DNA of 64,000 nucleotides from an uncultured Gemmatimonadota bacterium (lineage in GTDB: Bacteria > JAAXHH01), in NCBI GenBank assembly GCA_951812955.1, contig OX638340.1:2304001-2368000 (forward strand). Reading direction: 5' to 3'. The notes under the pieces are model-generated. The model was not told the origin of the DNA. It ran no database searches and was given only the letters and a program-made list of their open reading frames with translations. Numbering within the stretch: the stretch's first letter is position 1; the number at the start of each line of letters is the position of its first letter. Shown here piece by piece: positions 2,780 through 48,029 of this stretch. Made by a program: the position numbers and the translations under genes.

Positions 2780-4381
2780 TCAGTCAACGACAAACGTGTT
2801 TTCACTACGGCGAAAACTCCTATCATCGCCAAACGAAACATCATAAACCAGTCTATACTCACCGGCGACTTCCGGATCGTATGGGCAAGCGTCGAATTCC
2901 ACCCGTGTGGCCTCGATGTCTTCCCATGTACTGCCCATATCGTCGCTTCGCTGCCATACGGAGTAATGGACCGTCATGGGGATACCTAACGGCTGAGTTG
3001 GGTAGTTGTTTAGTTCAGCACGAAAGAGTGAACTTGCACAGTATTCTATAGTTATAGGAGTATATCCTGGTCCCGTGAATATCAACTTACCGGGCTCGAC
3101 CTTCCAACCTTCCCACGGGACATAGACTATCTCGTCGACTGGCTCGTCGACGCCTTCGCCGCCATCCCCGCCATCCCCGCCTTCACCACCTTCCCCTTCA
3201 GTCGGAACCATGACCGTGATACTCACCATGGCCGACACGTCGCCGGACGCGGCCGTGACTACGGCCATGCCGTTGCCCACCGCTTCTACCAATCCATCCT
3301 CGTCCACGGTGATCACGTTTTCGTCACCGCTCGTCCACGTGACGGCCGGTTCGGCAATGGCATTGTCGTTCCCGTCGCTGACGGAAACCATGAGTTGCAG
3401 GGTCTGTTCGATCTCGGTCAGCGTGGTGGCATCGGGTGCGACCTCGATGCTGATGCCGGCCGGAACCTGGGCGACGGTGATCGACGCAGTCCCCATAGCG
3501 TCTCCGGCCTGTGCCGTGATCTCCGCCATGCCGTTGTCCACCGCGGTCACAAGCCCGTTCTCGTCCACGGTGGCCACGGCGTCATCGGCGCTTGACCAGG
3601 TCACCATCACGTCCTCCATCGCGTTTTCGTGCTGGTCCAGCACGACGGCCGCGAGTTCCACGGTGTCGCCGATCGCTTCCAGCGTGTGCGCAGCGGGCTC
3701 GATCGTCAGGCTCGTCGGCACGGATACGGATACCGTGATGGACGCACTGGCGGACAGGCTGCCGGATGTGGCCGTGATCTCAGCCATCCCGTTACTCACC
3801 GCCGTTACAAGGCCCGCCCCGCTCACGGTCGCCACGGCGTCGTCGCCGCTCGACCAGGTGATGGACTGGCCGGACATGATGTTGTTCCGCTGATCCCGCA
3901 CCGTAGCCGACAACTGTACCGTTTCCCCGATCGCCTTCAGCGTATGGGACGTCGGTGCGACCGTGATCCGGGTCGGCACCGGCTCGGCCACCGTGATGTT
4001 CGCAGTGCCCGTCGCGTTGCCGGACTGCGCCCTTATTTGCGCGGCGCCGTTGGCCACGGCCGTCACCAGGCCATTTCCGCTGACAGTCGCCACCGCGGTA
4101 TTGCTGCTCGACCAAGTCACCGCCTGGCCGGTCATCGGATTGTTGTTCTGGTCCCTCACCATGGCCATCAGTTGCACGGTCGCGCCAATCGTCGCCAGCG
4201 TGTGCGAAGACGGCGTGACAGAAATGCTCGTCGCAACGGGCGCAGGCGGTGGAGCAGGCGGGGTCGGTGTGGACGGCTCGGGACTCGTCGGGCTGCTGTC
4301 CCCGCCACCGCATCCCGCCAGAAAAACCAGGTACAAGGATGCCGTGATCTTGGCGAACACGCGACTGTATGGACCAAACAC
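2780..4381 (-). CDS. Surface lipoprotein with 4 bacterial Ig-like (Big-2) repeats and a distinct C-terminal domain (533 aa)
   Basis: Lipobox LVFLAGC is followed by a Pro/Thr-rich linker. There are four ~85-aa repeats of the type VTPSSHTLATIGATVQL...VTWSS...ATVSGNGLVTAV.NG.A.I.A. A Gly/Glu-rich linker follows, then a ~120-aa C-terminal domain. Confidence 0.8.
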   Translation of the reverse strand: MFGPYSRVFAKITASLYLVFLAGCGGGDSSPTSPEPSTPTPPAPPPAPVATSISVTPSSHTLATIGATVQLMAMVRDQNNNPMTGQAVTWSSSNTAVATVSGNGLVTAVANGAAQIRAQSGNATGTANITVAEPVPTRITVAPTSHTLKAIGETVQLSATVRDQRNNIMSGQSITWSSGDDAVATVSGAGLVTAVSNGMAEITATSGSLSASASITVSVSVPTSLTIEPAAHTLEAIGDTVELAAVVLDQHENAMEDVMVTWSSADDAVATVDENGLVTAVDNGMAEITAQAGDAMGTASITVAQVPAGISIEVAPDATTLTEIEQTLQLMVSVSDGNDNAIAEPAVTWTSGDENVITVDEDGLVEAVGNGMAVVTAASGDVSAMVSITVMVPTEGEGGEGGDGGDGGEGVDEPVDEIVYVPWEGWKVEPGKLIFTGPGYTPITIEYCASSLFRAELNNYPTQPLGIPMTVHYSVWQRSDDMGSTWEDIEATRVEFDACPYDPEVAGEYRLVYDVSFGDDRSFRRSENTFVVD

Positions 4382-7708: not shown

Positions 7709-9772
7709 TCAGGGGATGACAAACGTATTCTCACTACGGCGAAAACTCCTATCATCGTCAAGCGAAATATCACCAACCAGTCTATACTCACCGGCGACTT
7801 CCGGATTGTATGGGCAAGCGTCGAATTCCACCCGTGTGTCCTCGATGTCTTCCCATGTACTGCCCATATCGTCGCTTCGCTGCCATACGGAGTAATGGAC
7901 CGTAATGGTGACACCTAACGGAGTTGGGCGGTTGTTTAGTTCTCCACCTAAGAGTGAACTTGCGCAGTTTACTATAGGTATTGTAGCAAGTCCTGGGACC
8001 GTAAAAACCAACCGACCGGGCTCGACCCGCACACCTTCCCACGGGACGTAGGTGACTTCATCCACCGTAATGGTCACCGTGATGCTCACCATGGCCGACA
8101 CGTCGCCGGACGCGGCCGTAACTTCGGTCATGCCGTTGCCCACAGCTTCTACCAACCCATCCTCGTCCACGGTGACCACGTTCTCGTCACCGCTCGTCCA
8201 CGTGACGGCCGGTTCGGCAATGGCATTGTCGTTCCCGTCGCTGACGGAAACCATGAGTTGCAGGGTCTGTTCGATCTCGGTCAGCGTGGTGGCATCGGGT
8301 GCGACCTCGATGCTGATGCCGGCCGGAACCTGGGCGACGGTGATCGACGCAGTCCCCATAGCGCCTCCGGCCTGGGCCGTGATCTCCGCCATGCCGTTGT
8401 CCACCGCGGTGACCACGCCGTTCTCGTCCACGGTGGCCACGGCGTCGTCGCCGCTCGACCAGGTCACCATCACGTCCTCCATCGCGTTTTCGTGCTGGTC
8501 CAGTACGACGGCCGCGAGTTCCACGGTGTCGCCGATCGCTCCCAGCGTGTGCGCGGCTGGCTCGATCGTGATGCTCGTTGCCACGGGCTCGGATATCACC
8601 ATGACCGTGATACTCACCATGGCCGATACGTCGCCGGATGCGGCCGTAACTGCGGCCATGCCGTTCCCCACCGCTTCTACCAAACCATCCTCGTCCACGG
8701 TGGCCACGTTTTCGTCACCGCTCGTCCACGTGACGGCCGGTTCGGCAATGGCATTGTCGTTCCCGTCGCTGACGGAAACCATGAGTTGCAGGGTCTGTTC
8801 GATCTCGGTCAGCGTGGTGGCATCGGGTGCGACCTCGATGCTGATGCCGGCCGGAACCTGGGCGACGGTGATCGACGCAGTCCCCATAGCGTCTCCGGCC
8901 TGTGCCGTGATCTCCGCCATGCCGTTGTCCACCGCGGTCACAAGCCCGTTCTCGTCCACGGTGGCCACGGCGTCATCGGCGCTTGACCAGGTCACCATCA
9001 CGTCCTCCATCGCGTTTTCGTGCTGGTCCAGCACGACGGCCGCGAGTTCCACGGTGTCGCCGATCGCTTCCAGCGTGTGCGCAGCGGGCTCGATCGTCAG
9101 GCTCGTCGGCACGGATACGGATACCGTGATGGACGCACTGGCGGACAGGCTGCCGGATGTGGCCGTGATCTCAGCCATCCCGTTACTCACCGCCGTTACA
9201 AGGCCCGCCCCGCTCACGGTCGCCACGGCGTCGTCGCCGCTCGACCAGGTGATGGACTGGCCGGACATGATGTTGTTCCGCTGATCCCGCACCGTAGCCG
9301 ACAACTGTACCGTTTCCCCGATCGCCTTCAGCGTATGGGACGTCGGTGCGACCGTGATCCGGGTCGGCACCGGCTCGGCCACCGTGATGTTCGCAGTGCC
9401 CGTCGCGTTGCCGGACTGCGCCCTTATTTGCGCGGCGCCGTTGGCCACGGCCGTCACCAGGCCATTTCCGCTGACAGTCGCCACCGCGGTATTGCTGCTC
9501 GACCAAGTCACCGCCTGGCCGGTCATCGGATTGTTGTTCTGGTCCCTCACCATGGCCATCAGTTGCACGGTCGCGCCAATCGTCGCCAGCGTGTGCGAAG
9601 ACGGCGTGACAGAAATGCTCGTCGCAACGGGCGCAGGCGGTGGAGCAGGCGGGGTCGGTGTGGACGGCTCGGGACTCGTCGGGCTGCTGTCCCCGCCACC
9701 GCATCCCGCCAGAAAAACCAGGTACAAGGATGCCGTGATCTTGGCGAACACGCGACTGTATGGACCAAACAC
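7709..9772 (-). CDS. Surface lipoprotein with 6 Big-2 repeats (paralogue of 2780..4381; 687 aa)
   Basis: The N-terminal ~380 aa are identical to copy 1. There are two extra Big-2 repeats (an internal tandem duplication of repeats 3-4). The C-terminal domain is diverged from copy 1 and the Gly/Glu linker is absent. Confidence 0.8.
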   Translation of the reverse strand: MFGPYSRVFAKITASLYLVFLAGCGGGDSSPTSPEPSTPTPPAPPPAPVATSISVTPSSHTLATIGATVQLMAMVRDQNNNPMTGQAVTWSSSNTAVATVSGNGLVTAVANGAAQIRAQSGNATGTANITVAEPVPTRITVAPTSHTLKAIGETVQLSATVRDQRNNIMSGQSITWSSGDDAVATVSGAGLVTAVSNGMAEITATSGSLSASASITVSVSVPTSLTIEPAAHTLEAIGDTVELAAVVLDQHENAMEDVMVTWSSADDAVATVDENGLVTAVDNGMAEITAQAGDAMGTASITVAQVPAGISIEVAPDATTLTEIEQTLQLMVSVSDGNDNAIAEPAVTWTSGDENVATVDEDGLVEAVGNGMAAVTAASGDVSAMVSITVMVISEPVATSITIEPAAHTLGAIGDTVELAAVVLDQHENAMEDVMVTWSSGDDAVATVDENGVVTAVDNGMAEITAQAGGAMGTASITVAQVPAGISIEVAPDATTLTEIEQTLQLMVSVSDGNDNAIAEPAVTWTSGDENVVTVDEDGLVEAVGNGMTEVTAASGDVSAMVSITVTITVDEVTYVPWEGVRVEPGRLVFTVPGLATIPIVNCASSLLGGELNNRPTPLGVTITVHYSVWQRSDDMGSTWEDIEDTRVEFDACPYNPEVAGEYRLVGDISLDDDRSFRRSENTFVIP

Positions 9773-42570: not shown

Positions 42571-43203
42571 ATGCCGCAGGGTACGATAACCAGGCTGAAC
42601 CACACCAGGGGATACGGATTCATCAACACGCCGGAGAACGAGGACCTGTTTTTTCATCGATCCAATATAATGGATGCGCAGTTTTCTCTATTGCAGGTCG
42701 GCGACCAGGTGACCTATACGGTTCAGTTCACTTCCCGCGGTCCACGGGCCGACCAGGTCCAGGTCGAGAGTCCGTCCGTGAAGCTCCAGGTCAACCTGGC
42801 CGTGAAGGACCTGCGTGTGTCCGCAGCATTCTACACCGAGACCTTCGATTTCAAGGAACTTTCTAACAATCCCGGCTATATCCTCCTTAAACGGAACGAT
42901 CTGATAATCGGATTGAAGACGGACGAACTGCTCTGGCATCCGGACCCTGGGGAACAGCCCGATGCGGCGCTCGTTCGGGGCGTGGGGGTCGAACTGGTCC
43001 TGGAAATCTCGGATATCGGCCAGTTTCACGCAAGGATGCAACAGGCCGGCGTGACCATACACGAACCGTTGAAAGAACAGCCGTGGGGCGCCACGGACTT
43101 CCGCATGCTGGATCCGGACGGGTACTACTGGCGGATCACGTCTCCCCGCGACCGCGATGTCGTCCACGCCGAAGAAGAACCGACGGAAGGTGAACCCGCG
43201 TGA
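42571..43203 (+). CDS. Cold-shock domain (CSD) fused to a glyoxalase/VOC-fold domain
   Basis: N-terminus [28 protein letters not shown] is a CspA-like RNP motif. The C-terminal ~130 aa have the VOC pattern (..[21 protein letters not shown].. then ..[10 protein letters not shown]). Confidence 0.7.
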
Positions 43204-43937
43204 GACTACTGGGAATCGATATCGGCGGATCGGGTATTAAGGGCGCGCCGGTCTGTCTGGAATCCGGGAAACTCGAGACGGAACGGTTCAGGATCGCGAC
43301 CCCCCAACCGGCCACCCCCGGTAAAGTCATCAAGACCGCGGCGGAAATCGTCCGGCACTTCGACCTCGAGGGTCCCGTGGGTTTCGGCTTTCCCGCGGTG
43401 ATCAAGAACGGCACGGTAAGGACCGCGGCGAACATCGACTCGTCCTGGATCGGCGTGAACGCGGCCGAACGCCTGGCGGAGGCAACGGGCCGTCCGGTCG
43501 TTCTCGTGAACGACGCCGATGCGGCGGGTATAGCGGAAATGCATTACGGCTCGGGCAGGGGCAGGGACGGCGTGGTGGTCATCGCGACCCTCGGAACCGG
43601 TATCGGAACCTCCCTGTTTGTCGACGGCAAGCTCGTGCCCAGCACGGAATTCGGCCACATCGAGATGAAAGGGCGCGTGGCGGAGAAATACGCCGCCGAC
43701 AGCGTGCGGAATGAGAAGCGGCTGGGCTGGCGGGAATGGGGCGGGCGCGTAAACGAGTACCTTTGCAAGCTGAACGAGCTGATCCGGCCGGACCTGATCA
43801 TCGTGGGCGGCGGCGCCAGCAACAAGTACGAAAAGTTTTCCCCGTGCTTCACCGTGGATACCGAGGTCGTACCCGCCCGGCTGAGAAACCAGGCCGGGAT
43901 CATCGGGGCGGCCCTGGCCGCGCAGACCGCCGCGTGA
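43200..43937 (+). CDS. ppgK: Polyphosphate glucokinase / ROK-family sugar kinase
   Basis: [17 protein letters not shown]-terminus. ...EFGHIEM... and the overall ~245-aa PPGK architecture. The start overlaps the upstream stop. Confidence 0.8.
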
Positions 43938-43964: not shown

Positions 43965-44840
43965 ATGTCCATTCTCACCAAGTCGAAACTGTTTCCCCTG
44001 CTGCCCGACGGCGTCCGCGGACGCGTGACTGAGAAACACCGGCTTTCCCCGTCCGGCCGCCTTAAGAGCAGGAAACAGGCCGGAGAGTTCATCCTGGAAC
44101 GGTGTTTCGTTTCGGTATACTCCGGTACCGAACTTCCCAGTATCCAGGAGGCCATTGACGGCAGGACCGACCTTTCCGATCGCGGTGACCGGATAAGCAC
44201 GGGACAAGGCATCGCCAGCATCTGGATGGGCGACCTGACGGAAGCCGTACCCTGCCTTGTCGGCACGTTCGTGAAGCGAAAGCCCACGCTGGTCGCCCGA
44301 AAGCACTGGGCAGCGCTGCTGGCCATGGAACGGGAGGGTTTCAAGGGCGCCCGGGAACGCAACCGGATATCCCCGGCGGCATACCACCTGGCCGACTGCA
44401 TCGAACGAGACGGTCCGGCCACGGGTCAAACCCTCCGCGATCGACTCGCCGAATCCGTCCGCATGGACAGGCGGACATTCCGCAAGGCATTGCTGGAGCT
44501 CGAGAAACTGTGGTTGATCGTTCCCGGACGTATCGAAAGGAGCATGCACGACGCGGCTTCGTGCGTATGGGAGTTGACGAAGCGATGGGTGCCTGCCGAC
44601 ACGGCGAGGGAAGCCGTCTCCATGACCCGCCGTCACGCCATGCGCAGCCTGCTCCTGGGCGCCGTGGATTCCGCGGGGGCCGTCGACGAGAAGGCGGTCT
44701 ACAGCTGGTTCGGCTGGCCCCGGTCCATGACGGGCGTCCTCATGCAGGAAGCCCTGTCGGCGGAAGCGTGCTTCCGGGTAGCCGGCCCCAATCCCGTGAT
44801 CATTTCGAGTGACCTGGCCGAAATCTGGCCGGAAGCCTAG
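43965..44840 (+). CDS. Hypothetical protein (possibly winged-helix, AlkZ/YcaQ-like)
   Basis: No confident motif. Helical and basic. The assignment is speculative. Confidence 0.3.
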   Translation: MSILTKSKLFPLLPDGVRGRVTEKHRLSPSGRLKSRKQAGEFILERCFVSVYSGTELPSIQEAIDGRTDLSDRGDRISTGQGIASIWMGDLTEAVPCLVGTFVKRKPTLVARKHWAALLAMEREGFKGARERNRISPAAYHLADCIERDGPATGQTLRDRLAESVRMDRRTFRKALLELEKLWLIVPGRIERSMHDAASCVWELTKRWVPADTAREAVSMTRRHAMRSLLLGAVDSAGAVDEKAVYSWFGWPRSMTGVLMQEALSAEACFRVAGPNPVIISSDLAEIWPEA

Positions 44841-44964
44841 CACGGCTGGTCCGATCGGCGGCGGAACTTCCGCCCAGCCTACGGGGGAACGCCCGTCCGA
44901 CCGGCGGCGCATCCCCACGGCCAACCTGTGAGCCGAATCCCATCCCTAAGGAACCCGTCCCGAT

Positions 44965-45735
44965 ATGCGCCTATACCACGATGACGACCAGGCCCGGCTC
45001 TGGCTGGGCGACGCGCGCAGGATGGACCCGATCCCCGACGGGTGCGCCAGCCTGGTGCTGACGTGTCCGCCCTGGTGGGACGGCGGCGACTACGGCCACC
45101 CGGACCAGATCGGCTTCGGCCAGACCTATGCTGGGTTTCTAACCTCCCTCTCCGAGGTCTGGGCGCATTGCCGACGGTGCCTGATGCCCGGCAGGGCGAT
45201 GATCGTCTGGATCGCAGATCTGCTCTGGCGGGAAGAACCGGTCGCGCTTGTGGCGGACGCGCACCGCGGTCTCCAGGAGGCCGGGTTTCTGTACGAGGCG
45301 ACCTGGTACTGGTTCGATCCGCGGAAGGAAACGAGGAAGGAAGAGGCGGATGCCCGCGTGCCGCTCGGATGCCGGCCCAAGGCGCACGCCGAGACCATCC
45401 TGGTCTACCGTAAGCCTGGCGCCGCCGAAACGCCCGCACCCGGCGTCATACAAAAAAGCCGCGTACCCGCGGAAGAATGGCGGGCGGGCCGCCAGGCCGT
45501 ATGGATGCCCGACGAGAACCTGGAACCCCCATACCAACGCCTGATTCGCCTCTGGTCATACGCGGGAGAAACGGTCCTGGATCCCTTTGCCGGGCAGGGC
45601 ATGATCGCGCTGGCGGCGCGTGCGCTCGAGCGCCGCAGCATCTCCGTGGAACTGAATTCCGATTCCTGCCGGCAGATCGTCTCGCTCCTCGCGGAGCCTC
45701 ACATGCCGTGTTCGTCCAGCAGCCGCCGCAGGTAG
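44965..45735 (+). CDS. DNA methyltransferase, N4/N6 family (beta-class order: motif IV then motif I); atypical CPPW catalytic motif
   Basis: SLVLTCPPWW lies where (D/S)PPY sits in the N6_N4_Mtase family. The C-terminal SAM motif is VLDPFAGQGMIALAA. No restriction endonuclease was recognised nearby. Confidence 0.7.
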   Translation: MRLYHDDDQARLWLGDARRMDPIPDGCASLVLTCPPWWDGGDYGHPDQIGFGQTYAGFLTSLSEVWAHCRRCLMPGRAMIVWIADLLWREEPVALVADAHRGLQEAGFLYEATWYWFDPRKETRKEEADARVPLGCRPKAHAETILVYRKPGAAETPAPGVIQKSRVPAEEWRAGRQAVWMPDENLEPPYQRLIRLWSYAGETVLDPFAGQGMIALAARALERRSISVELNSDSCRQIVSLLAEPHMPCSSSSRRR

Positions 45736-46535
45736 GCGACGGCCTTGGGTACCGCCGTCTCCTCGGCTTCAACGTCCTGCCCTTCGTAAACGACCGACAT
45801 CCAGCCATTGAAACCGACCTGCTTCAGGATCCCGAGAATGCGTGGATAGTCCAGCCACGCTTCCTCGCCGGACTGGACGCGGTAGAACTTCGCCCGGACG
45901 TGCGCGGCGTGCGGCGCGCTTTTCTCCATACTTCCGTAGAAATCGTATGCGGGATCGGGATTGCCTCTCGCTCCCGATGCGCCCGGTGACCCGGCGTACT
46001 GGCCCGTGTCCAGTATATGGGTGAAGGAAGGGTGGTTCACTTCGGTGAGAATCCGCACAACGTCATCGCCCGTGCGGGTCACGCACCCGTGGTTGTGGTT
46101 GTGCAGTCCCACGGCGACGCCCCGGGCGGCCCCGTGGGCGACGACCTCCGAAATCGCGTGGATCATGCGGGTCCACGTAACGTCGGCGGGCGTATCGTCC
46201 CGGTCCCACGCGGCGAAGATGCGCACCATCGGCACGTGCATACGCGCGGCCACGTCGATCCAGTGGTTGACCATCCCGATCTCTTCGGCGATCTCACCGG
46301 CCGGCTTTCCGAAGTTGTTGCTGATGCCGAGGTAGGAGATGGCCAGCCCCCGCTGCAGGCATCGCATGCGCACGTCCCCCAGGTACGCGTCGTCTTCCGA
46401 CGCCAGCGCCCGGGTATGGATGTCGATCCCGTCGAGTTCCATTTCCCGGGCGCGGTCGATGAAGTCGAAAAGGTCCATGCGGCCTTCCGAAATGGCGTGA
46501 CCATAGCTTAAGGACATGCAACCGAGTTTAATCAC
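45699..46535 (-). CDS. Sugar phosphate isomerase/epimerase (xylose isomerase-like TIM barrel)
   Basis: AP_endonuc_2/xylose-isomerase-like TIM pattern with conserved His/Glu/Asp positions (..LHNHNHG.., ..HILDTGQ..). Confidence 0.75.
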   Translation of the reverse strand: MIKLGCMSLSYGHAISEGRMDLFDFIDRAREMELDGIDIHTRALASEDDAYLGDVRMRCLQRGLAISYLGISNNFGKPAGEIAEEIGMVNHWIDVAARMHVPMVRIFAAWDRDDTPADVTWTRMIHAISEVVAHGAARGVAVGLHNHNHGCVTRTGDDVVRILTEVNHPSFTHILDTGQYAGSPGASGARGNPDPAYDFYGSMEKSAPHAAHVRAKFYRVQSGEEAWLDYPRILGILKQVGFNGWMSVVYEGQDVEAEETAVPKAVAYLRRLLDEHGM

Positions 46536-47652
46536 TGCGCGTCTTCCTCTCTCCCGGTGGATGTGCTGTCGCCGGGCTGACTGTCGCCGGGCTGGCTGTC
46601 GCCGGACGGGCGGTCGCCGGGCTGGCTGTCGTCCATCGTGCAGGACTGCTCCAGGAAATAGACCATCACGTACTCTTCCGCCGTACGCTTGGGGCCGGGC
46701 AGGTTTCGGATCCGCCGAGCGTGGGCTTCGAGGTGGCGCTTGACGAAGAACAGATATAGCTGGGTGACGAAATCGGTCGCCGTATGATTGTAGAGGTACG
46801 TGGGCGACAGGGAAAGGGTGGTATCAACGCCCGGATAGGCCGCTGTTTGATGGCCTTCCAGCATTTCCTTGTTTATCGATTCGAGCTCCTCGGTGGACAC
46901 GCTGAACAGGAATTCGCGAAAGGCCTGCAACTCCTCCGGCGGACAGGTTTTCCTGGAGAAGTAATCGAGGAACTGGATGTCGCCGCCGGCGCGCATCAGG
47001 GCGAAGATCTCGGACACTCCCATGAGCGTGCCCAGTTGCACGGTGGTCTGCCGCCGAGCTTCCCAGGTGGTCTCCAGCACGGGCAGGAAGGCTTCGATGC
47101 GCCGGGAAAACCGGTCTTCCCAGAGTAAGGTCAGGGCGGTGGCCGCCTTGGTTCGGACGGCGCGGCCGAGACTGTCGTCGCAGACAATGGCGGTCAGTAG
47201 CGATTCGATCACCTTATTGTGTATGCTCTGGCTGATCCGGTTGCCGATTGCGTCTTCCACGGTCGTGAAATCCTTCCTGCCGCCCAGCGCCTCCTGGGCG
47301 ACCTGGTGCAGCAGCCGGAACAGATTGAGTCGCGCCATGACGTACACCTGCCCGACCGCGGCACGCATGGGCAGCAGCATGTCGACCGTGAACAGCGTGG
47401 CGTTGGAAAGCGCTTCGATCAGGGACGAGGCGTCTCTCCGCTGCTGGCCCAGGGACTGGCTTTGCAGCAGGGAGGGATAGGCGTTCATGACCTTTGCTAG
47501 ATCATTCAGCCGGGCGATGGATTCACAGATCGCCTGGTCGAGGTGCGCGGCGTGGGGATTTCTGCTTTCCTTCAGCGAATCGGTGATATCACAGATCAGC
47601 CGTTTGTCGTCGTGAGTCAGGACGGGCGTATCGAGGGTGGTTGTGTCCAACG
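46532..47652 (-). CDS. Hypothetical alpha-helical protein with C-terminal SQPGD pentapeptide repeats
   Basis: C-terminus DDSQPGDRPSGDSQPGDSQPGDS is encoded by a ctgtcgccgggctgg tandem DNA repeat at 46545-46640. The start is uncertain (TTG near 47650 or ATG near 47490) because the tracked 5' extension overlaps rhaM. Confidence 0.4.
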
Positions 47653-47693
47653 TAATTTTGTTTACCCCGCGCGCGGGGGGCGCGCTTTGCCTG

Positions 47694-48029
47694 CTATTCC
47701 AAGTAGAATACCTGCTCCAGCGGCACCATGTTCTCGTCGGCGTGCTTGCCGCCGAGGTTCTCGAAGTAGGGCGCCATGAACTCCTGCCATCGCGTGTTGA
47801 CGTCTTTTTCGGCCATGGTGGCCAGCGCTTTCTCGAAATCCGGTGTCTCGCAATATCCGAAGAGCAGCCCGTCCTCGCGCATGAAAAGCGAGTAGTTGTG
47901 CCATCCCGCTTCACGCAGGGCGTCCAGCAACTCCGGCCACACCTCCCGGTGGTGCTTCTTGTAGTCTTCGATCATGCCTTCCTTGACCTTCAGGATGAAT
48001 CCCACCCTTTGCATGGCGATCTCCTTCAT
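47694..48029 (-). CDS. rhaM: L-rhamnose mutarotase
   Basis: 111-aa YiiL/RhaM family: ...VGFILKVKEG...YKKHH..VWPEL...GW.NYSLF... signature. Confidence 0.85.
   Translation of the reverse strand: MKEIAMQRVGFILKVKEGMIEDYKKHHREVWPELLDALREAGWHNYSLFMREDGLLFGYCETPDFEKALATMAEKDVNTRWQEFMAPYFENLGGKHADENMVPLEQVFYLE

Follow-up and report, generated by a model that had tools for sequence, protein, structure and literature searches.

A rare CPPW form of motif IV in a predicted solitary beta-class amino-methyltransferase of an uncultured Gemmatimonadota bacterium

The catalytic motif SPPY is common to most bacterial enzymes that methylate cytosine at N4 (PMC8885841, PMC6712171). In the rotifer enzyme N4CMT, SPPY has been shown to be catalytic (PMC8885841), and the hydroxyl group of its serine forms a hydrogen bond at the place where the target amino group is positioned (PMC10406627). 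Tryptophan in the fourth position of the motif has precedents in METTL3, METTL4, and MTA1, which carry DPPW (PMC7544214, PMC8885841), and DPPW occurs in MT-A70 enzymes (PMC7544214). Recognition of the DNA sequence by CcrM is carried by the loops that follow motif IV together with neighbouring strands (PMC10406627). The active glycosylases AlkZ and YcaQ, which are relevant here because of a gene next to the methyltransferase, are defined by a catalytic tripeptide, (H/Q)-aliphatic-(D/Q), in the N-terminal part of the protein (PMC9040887).

The window analysed here is a 64,000-nucleotide stretch of contig OX638340.1 (assembly GCA_951812955.1) of an uncultured Gemmatimonadota bacterium. Two open reading frames on its forward strand, at positions 43965–44840 (291 amino acids) and 44965–45735 (256 amino acids), are present as described in the first-pass annotation, which had taken the second to encode an orphan beta-class amino-methyltransferase. 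The family assignment holds. The 256-residue protein matches the Pfam family PF01555 (N6_N4_Mtase) with an E-value of 1.4e-18 and 68.2 bits (cut-off 26.7), and the match is nearly full-length, with residues 29–239 covering profile positions 2–220 of 221. Motif IV (TCPPWW, residues 33–38) precedes motif I (DPFAGQG, residues 206–212), which is the beta-class order, and many of the PADLOC "MTase_II" models match the protein. The closest relative with a solved structure, as judged by sequence, is TTHA0409 of Thermus thermophilus (PDB 2zie; HMMER E 1.7e-23). The same protein is the top Foldseek match (E 3e-22, TM 0.73–0.82) of the AlphaFold2 model, which has a mean pLDDT of 87 and a pTM of 0.87. 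It is followed by the N4-cytosine enzyme N4CMT of rotifers, CcrM, M.PvuII, M.MboIIA, and M.BceJIV, and M.RsrI is also among the fold matches. The predicted structure thus has the Rossmann-like, SAM-dependent fold of the solved beta-class enzymes. A HMMER search of 1.84 billion cluster representatives returned 4456 relatives at E ≤ 0.001; only four of them reached E < 1e-30, and the close clade of the methyltransferase is small. As judged from its sequence, the protein is a beta-class N6/N4 amino-methyltransferase from the TSPPYW branch that includes TTHA0409, with a presumed enzymatic activity.

The motif IV of the protein, T33-C-P-P-W-W38, is encoded at positions 45061–45078 of the forward strand (CPPW at 45064–45075), as read directly from the sequence. 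It is the clade-specific form of TSPPYW and the first of the motifs in the protein order. In the HMMER alignment, the segment lvlTCPPWWdggdY is positioned opposite lvvTSPPYWtlkrY of TTHA0409. Each residue of CPPW here faces its counterpart in SPPY, as it also does in about 180 other relatives; CPPW is therefore the true motif IV, as had been proposed at first reading, and not a chance look-alike. Compared to the classical pattern (D/N/S)PP(Y/F/W/H), the two prolines and the aromatic residue are retained; the cysteine in position one is outside the classical set and is exchanged with serine within the clade. Among 253 relatives aligned to the profile, the motif IV column contains SPPY in 183, CPPW in 20, SPPW in four, and CPPY in one, the remaining forms being a scatter of single variants. 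CPPW and SPPW are restricted to one clade of these relatives. Across 20 species-level genomes the tetrapeptide CPPW is invariant, and is extended to CPPWW in 18 and to CPPWY in two.

In a neighbour-joining tree, a sequence with SPPYW (P0128) is the sister of a clade in which all members carry PPWW. Serine and cysteine alternate within that clade, with SPPWW in P0019 and P0023–P0025 and CPPWW elsewhere. One CPPWW sequence (P0022) nests with the SPPWW sequences, and therefore the change between serine and cysteine occurred at least twice. The simplest history that may be read from these sequences is a stepwise change from SPPYW through SPPWW to CPPWW in one lineage of Latescibacterota-type bacteria. 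The first-pass annotation had considered altered chemistry as an explanation of CPPW. However, the interchange of serine and cysteine at the same position argues against a new cysteine-based chemistry or a cysteine nucleophile, and tryptophan in position four has the precedent of the DPPW enzymes. The interchange argues instead that the cysteine may be a stand-in for the hydrogen-bonding serine hydroxyl of SPPY. Among the papers covered by a literature search, none mentions CPPW, CPPY, or SPPW in connection with a methyltransferase. CPPW is a rare way of spelling motif IV in a known enzyme, particular to this lineage, and not a new system.

Other parts of the protein differ from the SPPY relatives as well. 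The SAM-binding motif I, L-D-P-F-A-G-Q-G, is encoded at positions 45577–45600 of the forward strand, and its segment D206-P-F-A-G-Q-G212 belongs to a G-Q-G-x-I form that is characteristic of the clade, as opposed to G-(S/T)-G-T-T in the SPPY relatives. Residue 211 is glutamine in 22 of the 24 clade members, and serine or threonine in 144 of the 183 SPPY relatives. The aspartate of motif I is replaced by asparagine in several members (NPFSGQG). Proteins of the clade are about 21 residues shorter than TTHA0409, and the missing residues are spread over three loop regions. Most members have the histidine of the HPxPF element, which is replaced by proline in the window protein and by aspartate in that of genome L008. 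The substitution of GQGxI for GSGTT, which binds the SAM carboxylate, the shortened loops, and the changes in HPxPF leave room for a weakened activity or another substrate. None of the 24 clade members deviates at D16, R18, F208, or E229, and the catalytic core of the methyltransferase is clearly under constraint.

The distribution of the gene was determined from a scan with one genome per species, which provided 20 loci encoding proteins with 75–98% identity to the methyltransferase; that of the long-read genome L001 (OY762445.1) has 98%. All 20 carriers were assembled from metagenomes and bear the label Candidatus Latescibacterota, "Gemmatimonadetes", or simply "bacterium", and the isolate names of several (for example APA, IRC, and Plut) suggest sponge and coral hosts. 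The methyltransferase reading frame is intact in every one of them, and it is positioned within a metabolic block of 12 genes whose synteny extends to all 20. The block consists of two aminotransferases, an Ig_CycH protein, a cold-shock-domain/glyoxalase fusion, ppgK, the gene of an AlkZ-related protein, the methyltransferase, a convergent TIM-barrel isomerase, a TP_0813_N protein, rhaM, a PIG-L deacetylase, and an MFS transporter. Pairwise Nei–Gojobori dN/dS is about 0.23 for the methyltransferase, 0.19 for the AlkZ-related gene, and 0.07–0.15 for the neighbours; the selection on the methyltransferase is purifying and only slightly relaxed. The best phage or plasmid relatives have at most about 32% identity, and the base composition near the gene is unremarkable. 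The patchy, mobile distribution expected of Type II restriction-modification systems is not observed, since the gene occupies the same position in the block in 20 of 20 genomes. The methyltransferase is a core, vertically inherited, and chromosomally fixed gene, and not a mobile one.

The description of the gene as an orphan, with no restriction endonuclease on either side, agrees with the searches of the flanking genes. Pfam, NCBIfam, and PADLOC identified no nuclease family or defence model among them, and the only protein matched by PADLOC was the methyltransferase. The neighbours in the window are all metabolic or AlkZ-related: ppgK, the AlkZ-related gene, the TIM-barrel isomerase, TP_0813_N, rhaM, PIG-L, and the MFS transporter. 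The upstream flank of the same-strand run that contains the methyltransferase is formed by ppgK, which encodes a polyphosphate-glucose phosphotransferase of the ROK family (positions 43200–43937, forward strand; NCBIfam NF045942, E 4e-97, 324.7 bits, cut-off 250). Downstream, a gene on the reverse strand (positions 45699–46535) encodes a xylose-isomerase-like TIM-barrel protein (PF01261, E 9e-24), which looks like a sugar enzyme and conforms to the sugar isomerase named in the first-pass annotation. The 3′ end of this convergent gene overlaps that of the methyltransferase by 37 nucleotides. Its convergent orientation precludes co-transcription with the methyltransferase. The PF01261 protein was also considered as an AP endonuclease of the endonuclease IV type; however, it matches no NCBIfam endonuclease IV model, has only weak matches, which are to sugar epimerases and dehydratases, and is grouped with rhaM. 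A promoter scan found one sigma-70-like site, upstream of the cold-shock-domain/glyoxalase gene, and a terminator scan returned nothing convincing in the intervals between the four genes of the same-strand run. These signals in the sequence are suggestive, at most, of possible co-transcription of the four genes.

Homologues of the methyltransferase with about 50% identity have different surroundings, which also contain no nuclease. The gene is positioned between those of ETF-QO and a 560-residue protein in the contig of P0021, between a Fer4/CCG oxidoreductase and the TIM-barrel gene in that of P0019 (locus L041), and between an aminotransferase and the TIM-barrel gene in that of P0022 (locus L045); the neighbours of P0025 and P0020 are amidohydrolases or hypothetical genes. 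The 560-residue gene, which overlaps the stop codon of the methyltransferase, was rejected as a candidate endonuclease because its product has the hydrophobic N-terminal sequence of a membrane protein and no counterpart in the window. The convergent TIM-barrel gene is present at L041, L045, L049, and L051, and it is the only neighbour that recurs in contexts of about 50% identity. An adjacent cognate endonuclease, as in Type II restriction-modification systems, is thus found neither in the window nor in the five other contexts.

The protein encoded upstream of the methyltransferase (positions 43965–44840, forward strand) had been called uncharacterised, and it was proposed that it could be a novel partner nuclease. 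It belongs to a named family, PF24741 (AlkZ-rel; E 9e-13, 48.6 bits, cut-off 26.5), with residues 35–244 matching profile positions 3–215 of 221, and it has a marginal match to PF06224 (AlkZ-like; E 6e-6, 26.5 bits, cut-off 25.9). The label "uncharacterised" falls as regards the family and stands as regards its function. A clear and unrelated function of this gene had been named as evidence against the first reading; what was found goes half of that way, because the family is named and its function is putative. The family is narrow, with 22 clusters and the same 22 when a profile was used as the query. A sequence search of the PDB returned no significant match. The AlphaFold2 model is confident for residues 112–290 only, which form winged-helix repeats, and has pLDDT below 50 for residues 1–111. 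Its best fold match is the DNA-bound crosslink glycosylase AlkX/YcaQ (PDB 9zd6; E 6.6e-6, TMq 0.43), and hhalign found no match between the protein and Escherichia coli YcaQ. The AlkZ-related alignment, inspected by eye, contains no conserved (H/Q)-aliphatic-(D/Q) tripeptide; HLAD at residues 141–144 is not conserved. The gene is cleanly absent from L013 and L018, in which the methyltransferase is intact, and L014 encodes an in-frame, 222-residue version that lacks the central winged helix. It is thus missing or shortened in three of 20 genomes. The frameshift of the gene in L008 may be an assembly error and was not counted as a loss. The protein is best described as a distantly AlkZ/YcaQ-related winged-helix protein of putative function, which is a neighbour of the methyltransferase and not its demonstrated partner.

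The reading that we prefer, with a probability of about 0.62, is that the window protein is a solitary, core, TTHA0409-like DNA amino-methyltransferase that probably targets N4 of cytosine, with homology as the guide to its activity, DNA substrate, target, and role. A probable homodimer would flip the target base into a pocket built by motif IV. The first residue of the motif, cysteine here and serine in the relatives, would form hydrogen bonds with the exocyclic amino group together with the proline carbonyl; the aromatic residue, tryptophan here and tyrosine in the relatives, would stack on the target base, and the methyl group of SAM would be transferred in line. The most likely product would be N4-methylcytosine in a short DNA motif. 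The enzyme does not belong to a restriction-modification pair, and its mark would presumably be epigenetic or housekeeping. N4-methylcytosine is the favoured product because the whole surrounding subfamily carries SPPY and its annotated relatives are named "N4-cytosine methylase" or M.MjaI-like. The rule by which serine or aspartate in motif IV separates N4-cytosine from N6-adenine enzymes is a tendency, not a law. The main alternative, which we consider rather unlikely, is that the same solitary enzyme methylates N6 of adenine. Both specificities share the beta-class fold, CcrM, M.MboIIA, M.BceJIV, and M.RsrI are all among the fold matches, and tryptophan in position four is otherwise known from DPPW adenine enzymes (PMC7544214, PMC8885841). 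However, position one is serine or cysteine, and never aspartate or asparagine, in the clade, and it is serine in the 183 of 253 relatives with SPPY, in agreement with the names given to the annotated relatives.

It is improbable that the clade has adopted altered chemistry or has exchanged DNA for another substrate (rRNA, tRNA, or protein). Such a move has some points in its favour. It would account for the coordinated clade-specific changes, which are CPPW in motif IV, GQG in motif I, and shortened recognition loops, and the core, vertical distribution without restriction-modification context resembles that of housekeeping modification enzymes; moreover, RNA enzymes exist in the wider beta class (PMC7544214). 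However, the closest structures are all those of DNA enzymes, and the interchange of serine and cysteine speaks against a cysteine nucleophile. We know of no characterised PF01555 member that acts on anything but DNA. We likewise give little credence to the speculation that the CPPW/GQG clade has left ordinary sequence-specific DNA amino-methylation, for example as a housekeeping RNA methyltransferase or an enzyme acting on another atom or base state, and might cooperate with the AlkZ-related protein. A reading of the protein as a relic that has lost catalysis, or as a pseudo-enzyme with a structural or regulatory role, could be argued from the non-canonical motif IV, the change of GSGTT to GQGxI, NPFSGQG in several members, and the non-conserved histidine of HPxPF. 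It is nevertheless very improbable, given the dN/dS of 0.23, the reading frame intact in 20 of 20 genomes, and the strict conservation of motif IV, D16, R18, F208, and E229. Most improbable is a restriction-like pair, in which the AlkZ-related protein, as a glycosylase or nuclease, would attack unmethylated DNA and the methyltransferase would protect the host. The loss of a restriction enzyme with retention of its methyltransferase is a known path of decay, and the two genes are same-strand neighbours in 16 of 20 genomes and also at loci where the identity of the AlkZ-related protein is only 55–69%. Real DNA glycosylases exist in the AlkZ/YcaQ superfamily (PMC9040887). However, the loci with 55–69% identity are inside the same large syntenic block, which explains the adjacency, and the two genes are not linked more tightly than the remaining ten of the block. 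In distant relatives the genes are unlinked: in L041 the AlkZ-related orthologue is 7.7 kb from the methyltransferase and adjoins an unrelated class I methyltransferase, and in the P0021 contig it is not within 8 kb. Unlike mobile restriction-modification systems, each of the two is a core gene of vertical descent within a housekeeping block. The AlkZ-related protein as a restriction partner was rejected as the main reading because the protein lacks the catalytic motif, has no PADLOC match and none to the YcaQ profile, and its gene is lost or shortened in three genomes and unlinked in distant relatives. Its N-terminal third, the site of the motif in AlkZ, is not confidently modelled. A toxin-and-protector relation of the two genes is therefore unlikely.

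The CPPW methyltransferase reveals no new defence system or mechanism. If the solitary enzyme is active, cysteine is added to the residues tolerated in position one of motif IV of amino-methyltransferases. Classifiers based on motifs, such as the REBASE-style pattern (D/N/S)PP(Y/F/W), would otherwise mislabel or miss CPPW enzymes. An active enzyme would also point to DNA methylation as a core mark shared throughout a lineage of uncultured sponge and coral symbionts.

Among the known systems, TTHA0409 (M.TthA0409; PDB 2zie, 2zif, and 2zig) is the most similar to the window protein. The two have about 30% identity, the same compact, single-domain beta-class layout, and the same extended motif T-x-P-P-aromatic-W; they differ in that TTHA0409 has TSPPYW and GTGTT, whereas the window protein has TCPPWW and GQGMI. 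TTHA0409 is itself functionally uncharacterised and is annotated as a "putative" DNA modification methylase of T. thermophilus HB8. M.PvuII (PDB 1boo) and rotifer N4CMT (PDB 8s9m) share the fold, the motif order, and a small polar residue instead of aspartate or asparagine in position one of motif IV. By contrast, their identity to the window protein in structural alignments is 16–21%, and the window protein has cysteine in the place of serine and tryptophan in the place of tyrosine or phenylalanine. M.PvuII is part of a restriction-modification pair, whereas the window methyltransferase is solitary.

The upstream protein is related to the crosslink glycosylases AlkZ, YcaQ, and AlkX (HTH_42), and its C-terminal winged-helix part superposes on 9zd6. 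It is shorter, with 291 residues compared to 410 in E. coli YcaQ and 375–390 in the chains of 9zd6, and it lacks the Q-aliphatic-Q/D catalytic motif. Of the C-shaped surface that is formed by three tandem winged helices in AlkZ and YcaQ, residues 112–290 are modelled as winged-helix repeats, and residues 1–111 are of low confidence. The methyltransferase resembles CcrM (PDB 6pbd) and M.BceJIV (PDB 8urk) in being a core, vertically inherited, and solitary beta-class enzyme with the same fold; the role of those two enzymes is regulatory and not defensive. Both of them have DPPY and methylate adenine, and CcrM contains an extra C-terminal DNA-binding domain, which is absent from the window protein.

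The first 9800 nucleotides of the window hold a two-gene module of approximately 4.93 kb that is present twice in tandem, with the copies at 1–4.9 kb and 4.93–9.8 kb sharing 71–96% nucleotide identity. The second gene of the module (2780–4381 and 7709–9772, both on the minus strand) contains tandem repeats of 258–261 nucleotides, four in the first copy and six in the second, which probably encode repeated protein domains of about 87 residues. ARAGORN predicts three 93-nucleotide tRNA-Gly(ccc) genes in the window (3335–3427, 8198–8290, and 8726–8818, plus strand). All three lie inside these coding repeats, have no tRNA match in Rfam at the gathering score, and are probably false positives.

A cold-shock DNA/RNA-binding domain (PF00313) and a glyoxalase/bleomycin-resistance domain (PF00903) are fused in one reading frame (42571–43203, plus strand), the stop of which overlaps the start of the polyphosphate-glucose phosphotransferase gene ppgK. 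The fusion is kept in all related loci.

The mechanically called 460-residue reading frame at 46532–47914 (minus strand) has no match in the searched copy of Pfam or in the PDB. Its orthologues, which belong to PF27435 (TP_0813_N), are only about 368 residues long as called, and the frame runs into rhaM (47694–48029); therefore, the true start of the gene is probably located near 47605–47690.

The gene of the AlkZ-related winged-helix protein has an intact in-frame deletion variant in at least one genome (L014:9325–9993, a closely related syntenic locus). The 222-residue product, equal in length to protein cluster P0125, lacks roughly residues 155–229, which form the central winged helix. At L041, a locus from a more distantly related genome, a gene for an unrelated class I SAM methyltransferase of 205 residues (Methyltransf_23/11/25), which has no homologue in the window, comes directly after the orthologue of the AlkZ-related gene (region L041:1–972). 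A methyltransferase gene follows the AlkZ-related gene in both arrangements, possibly by coincidence.
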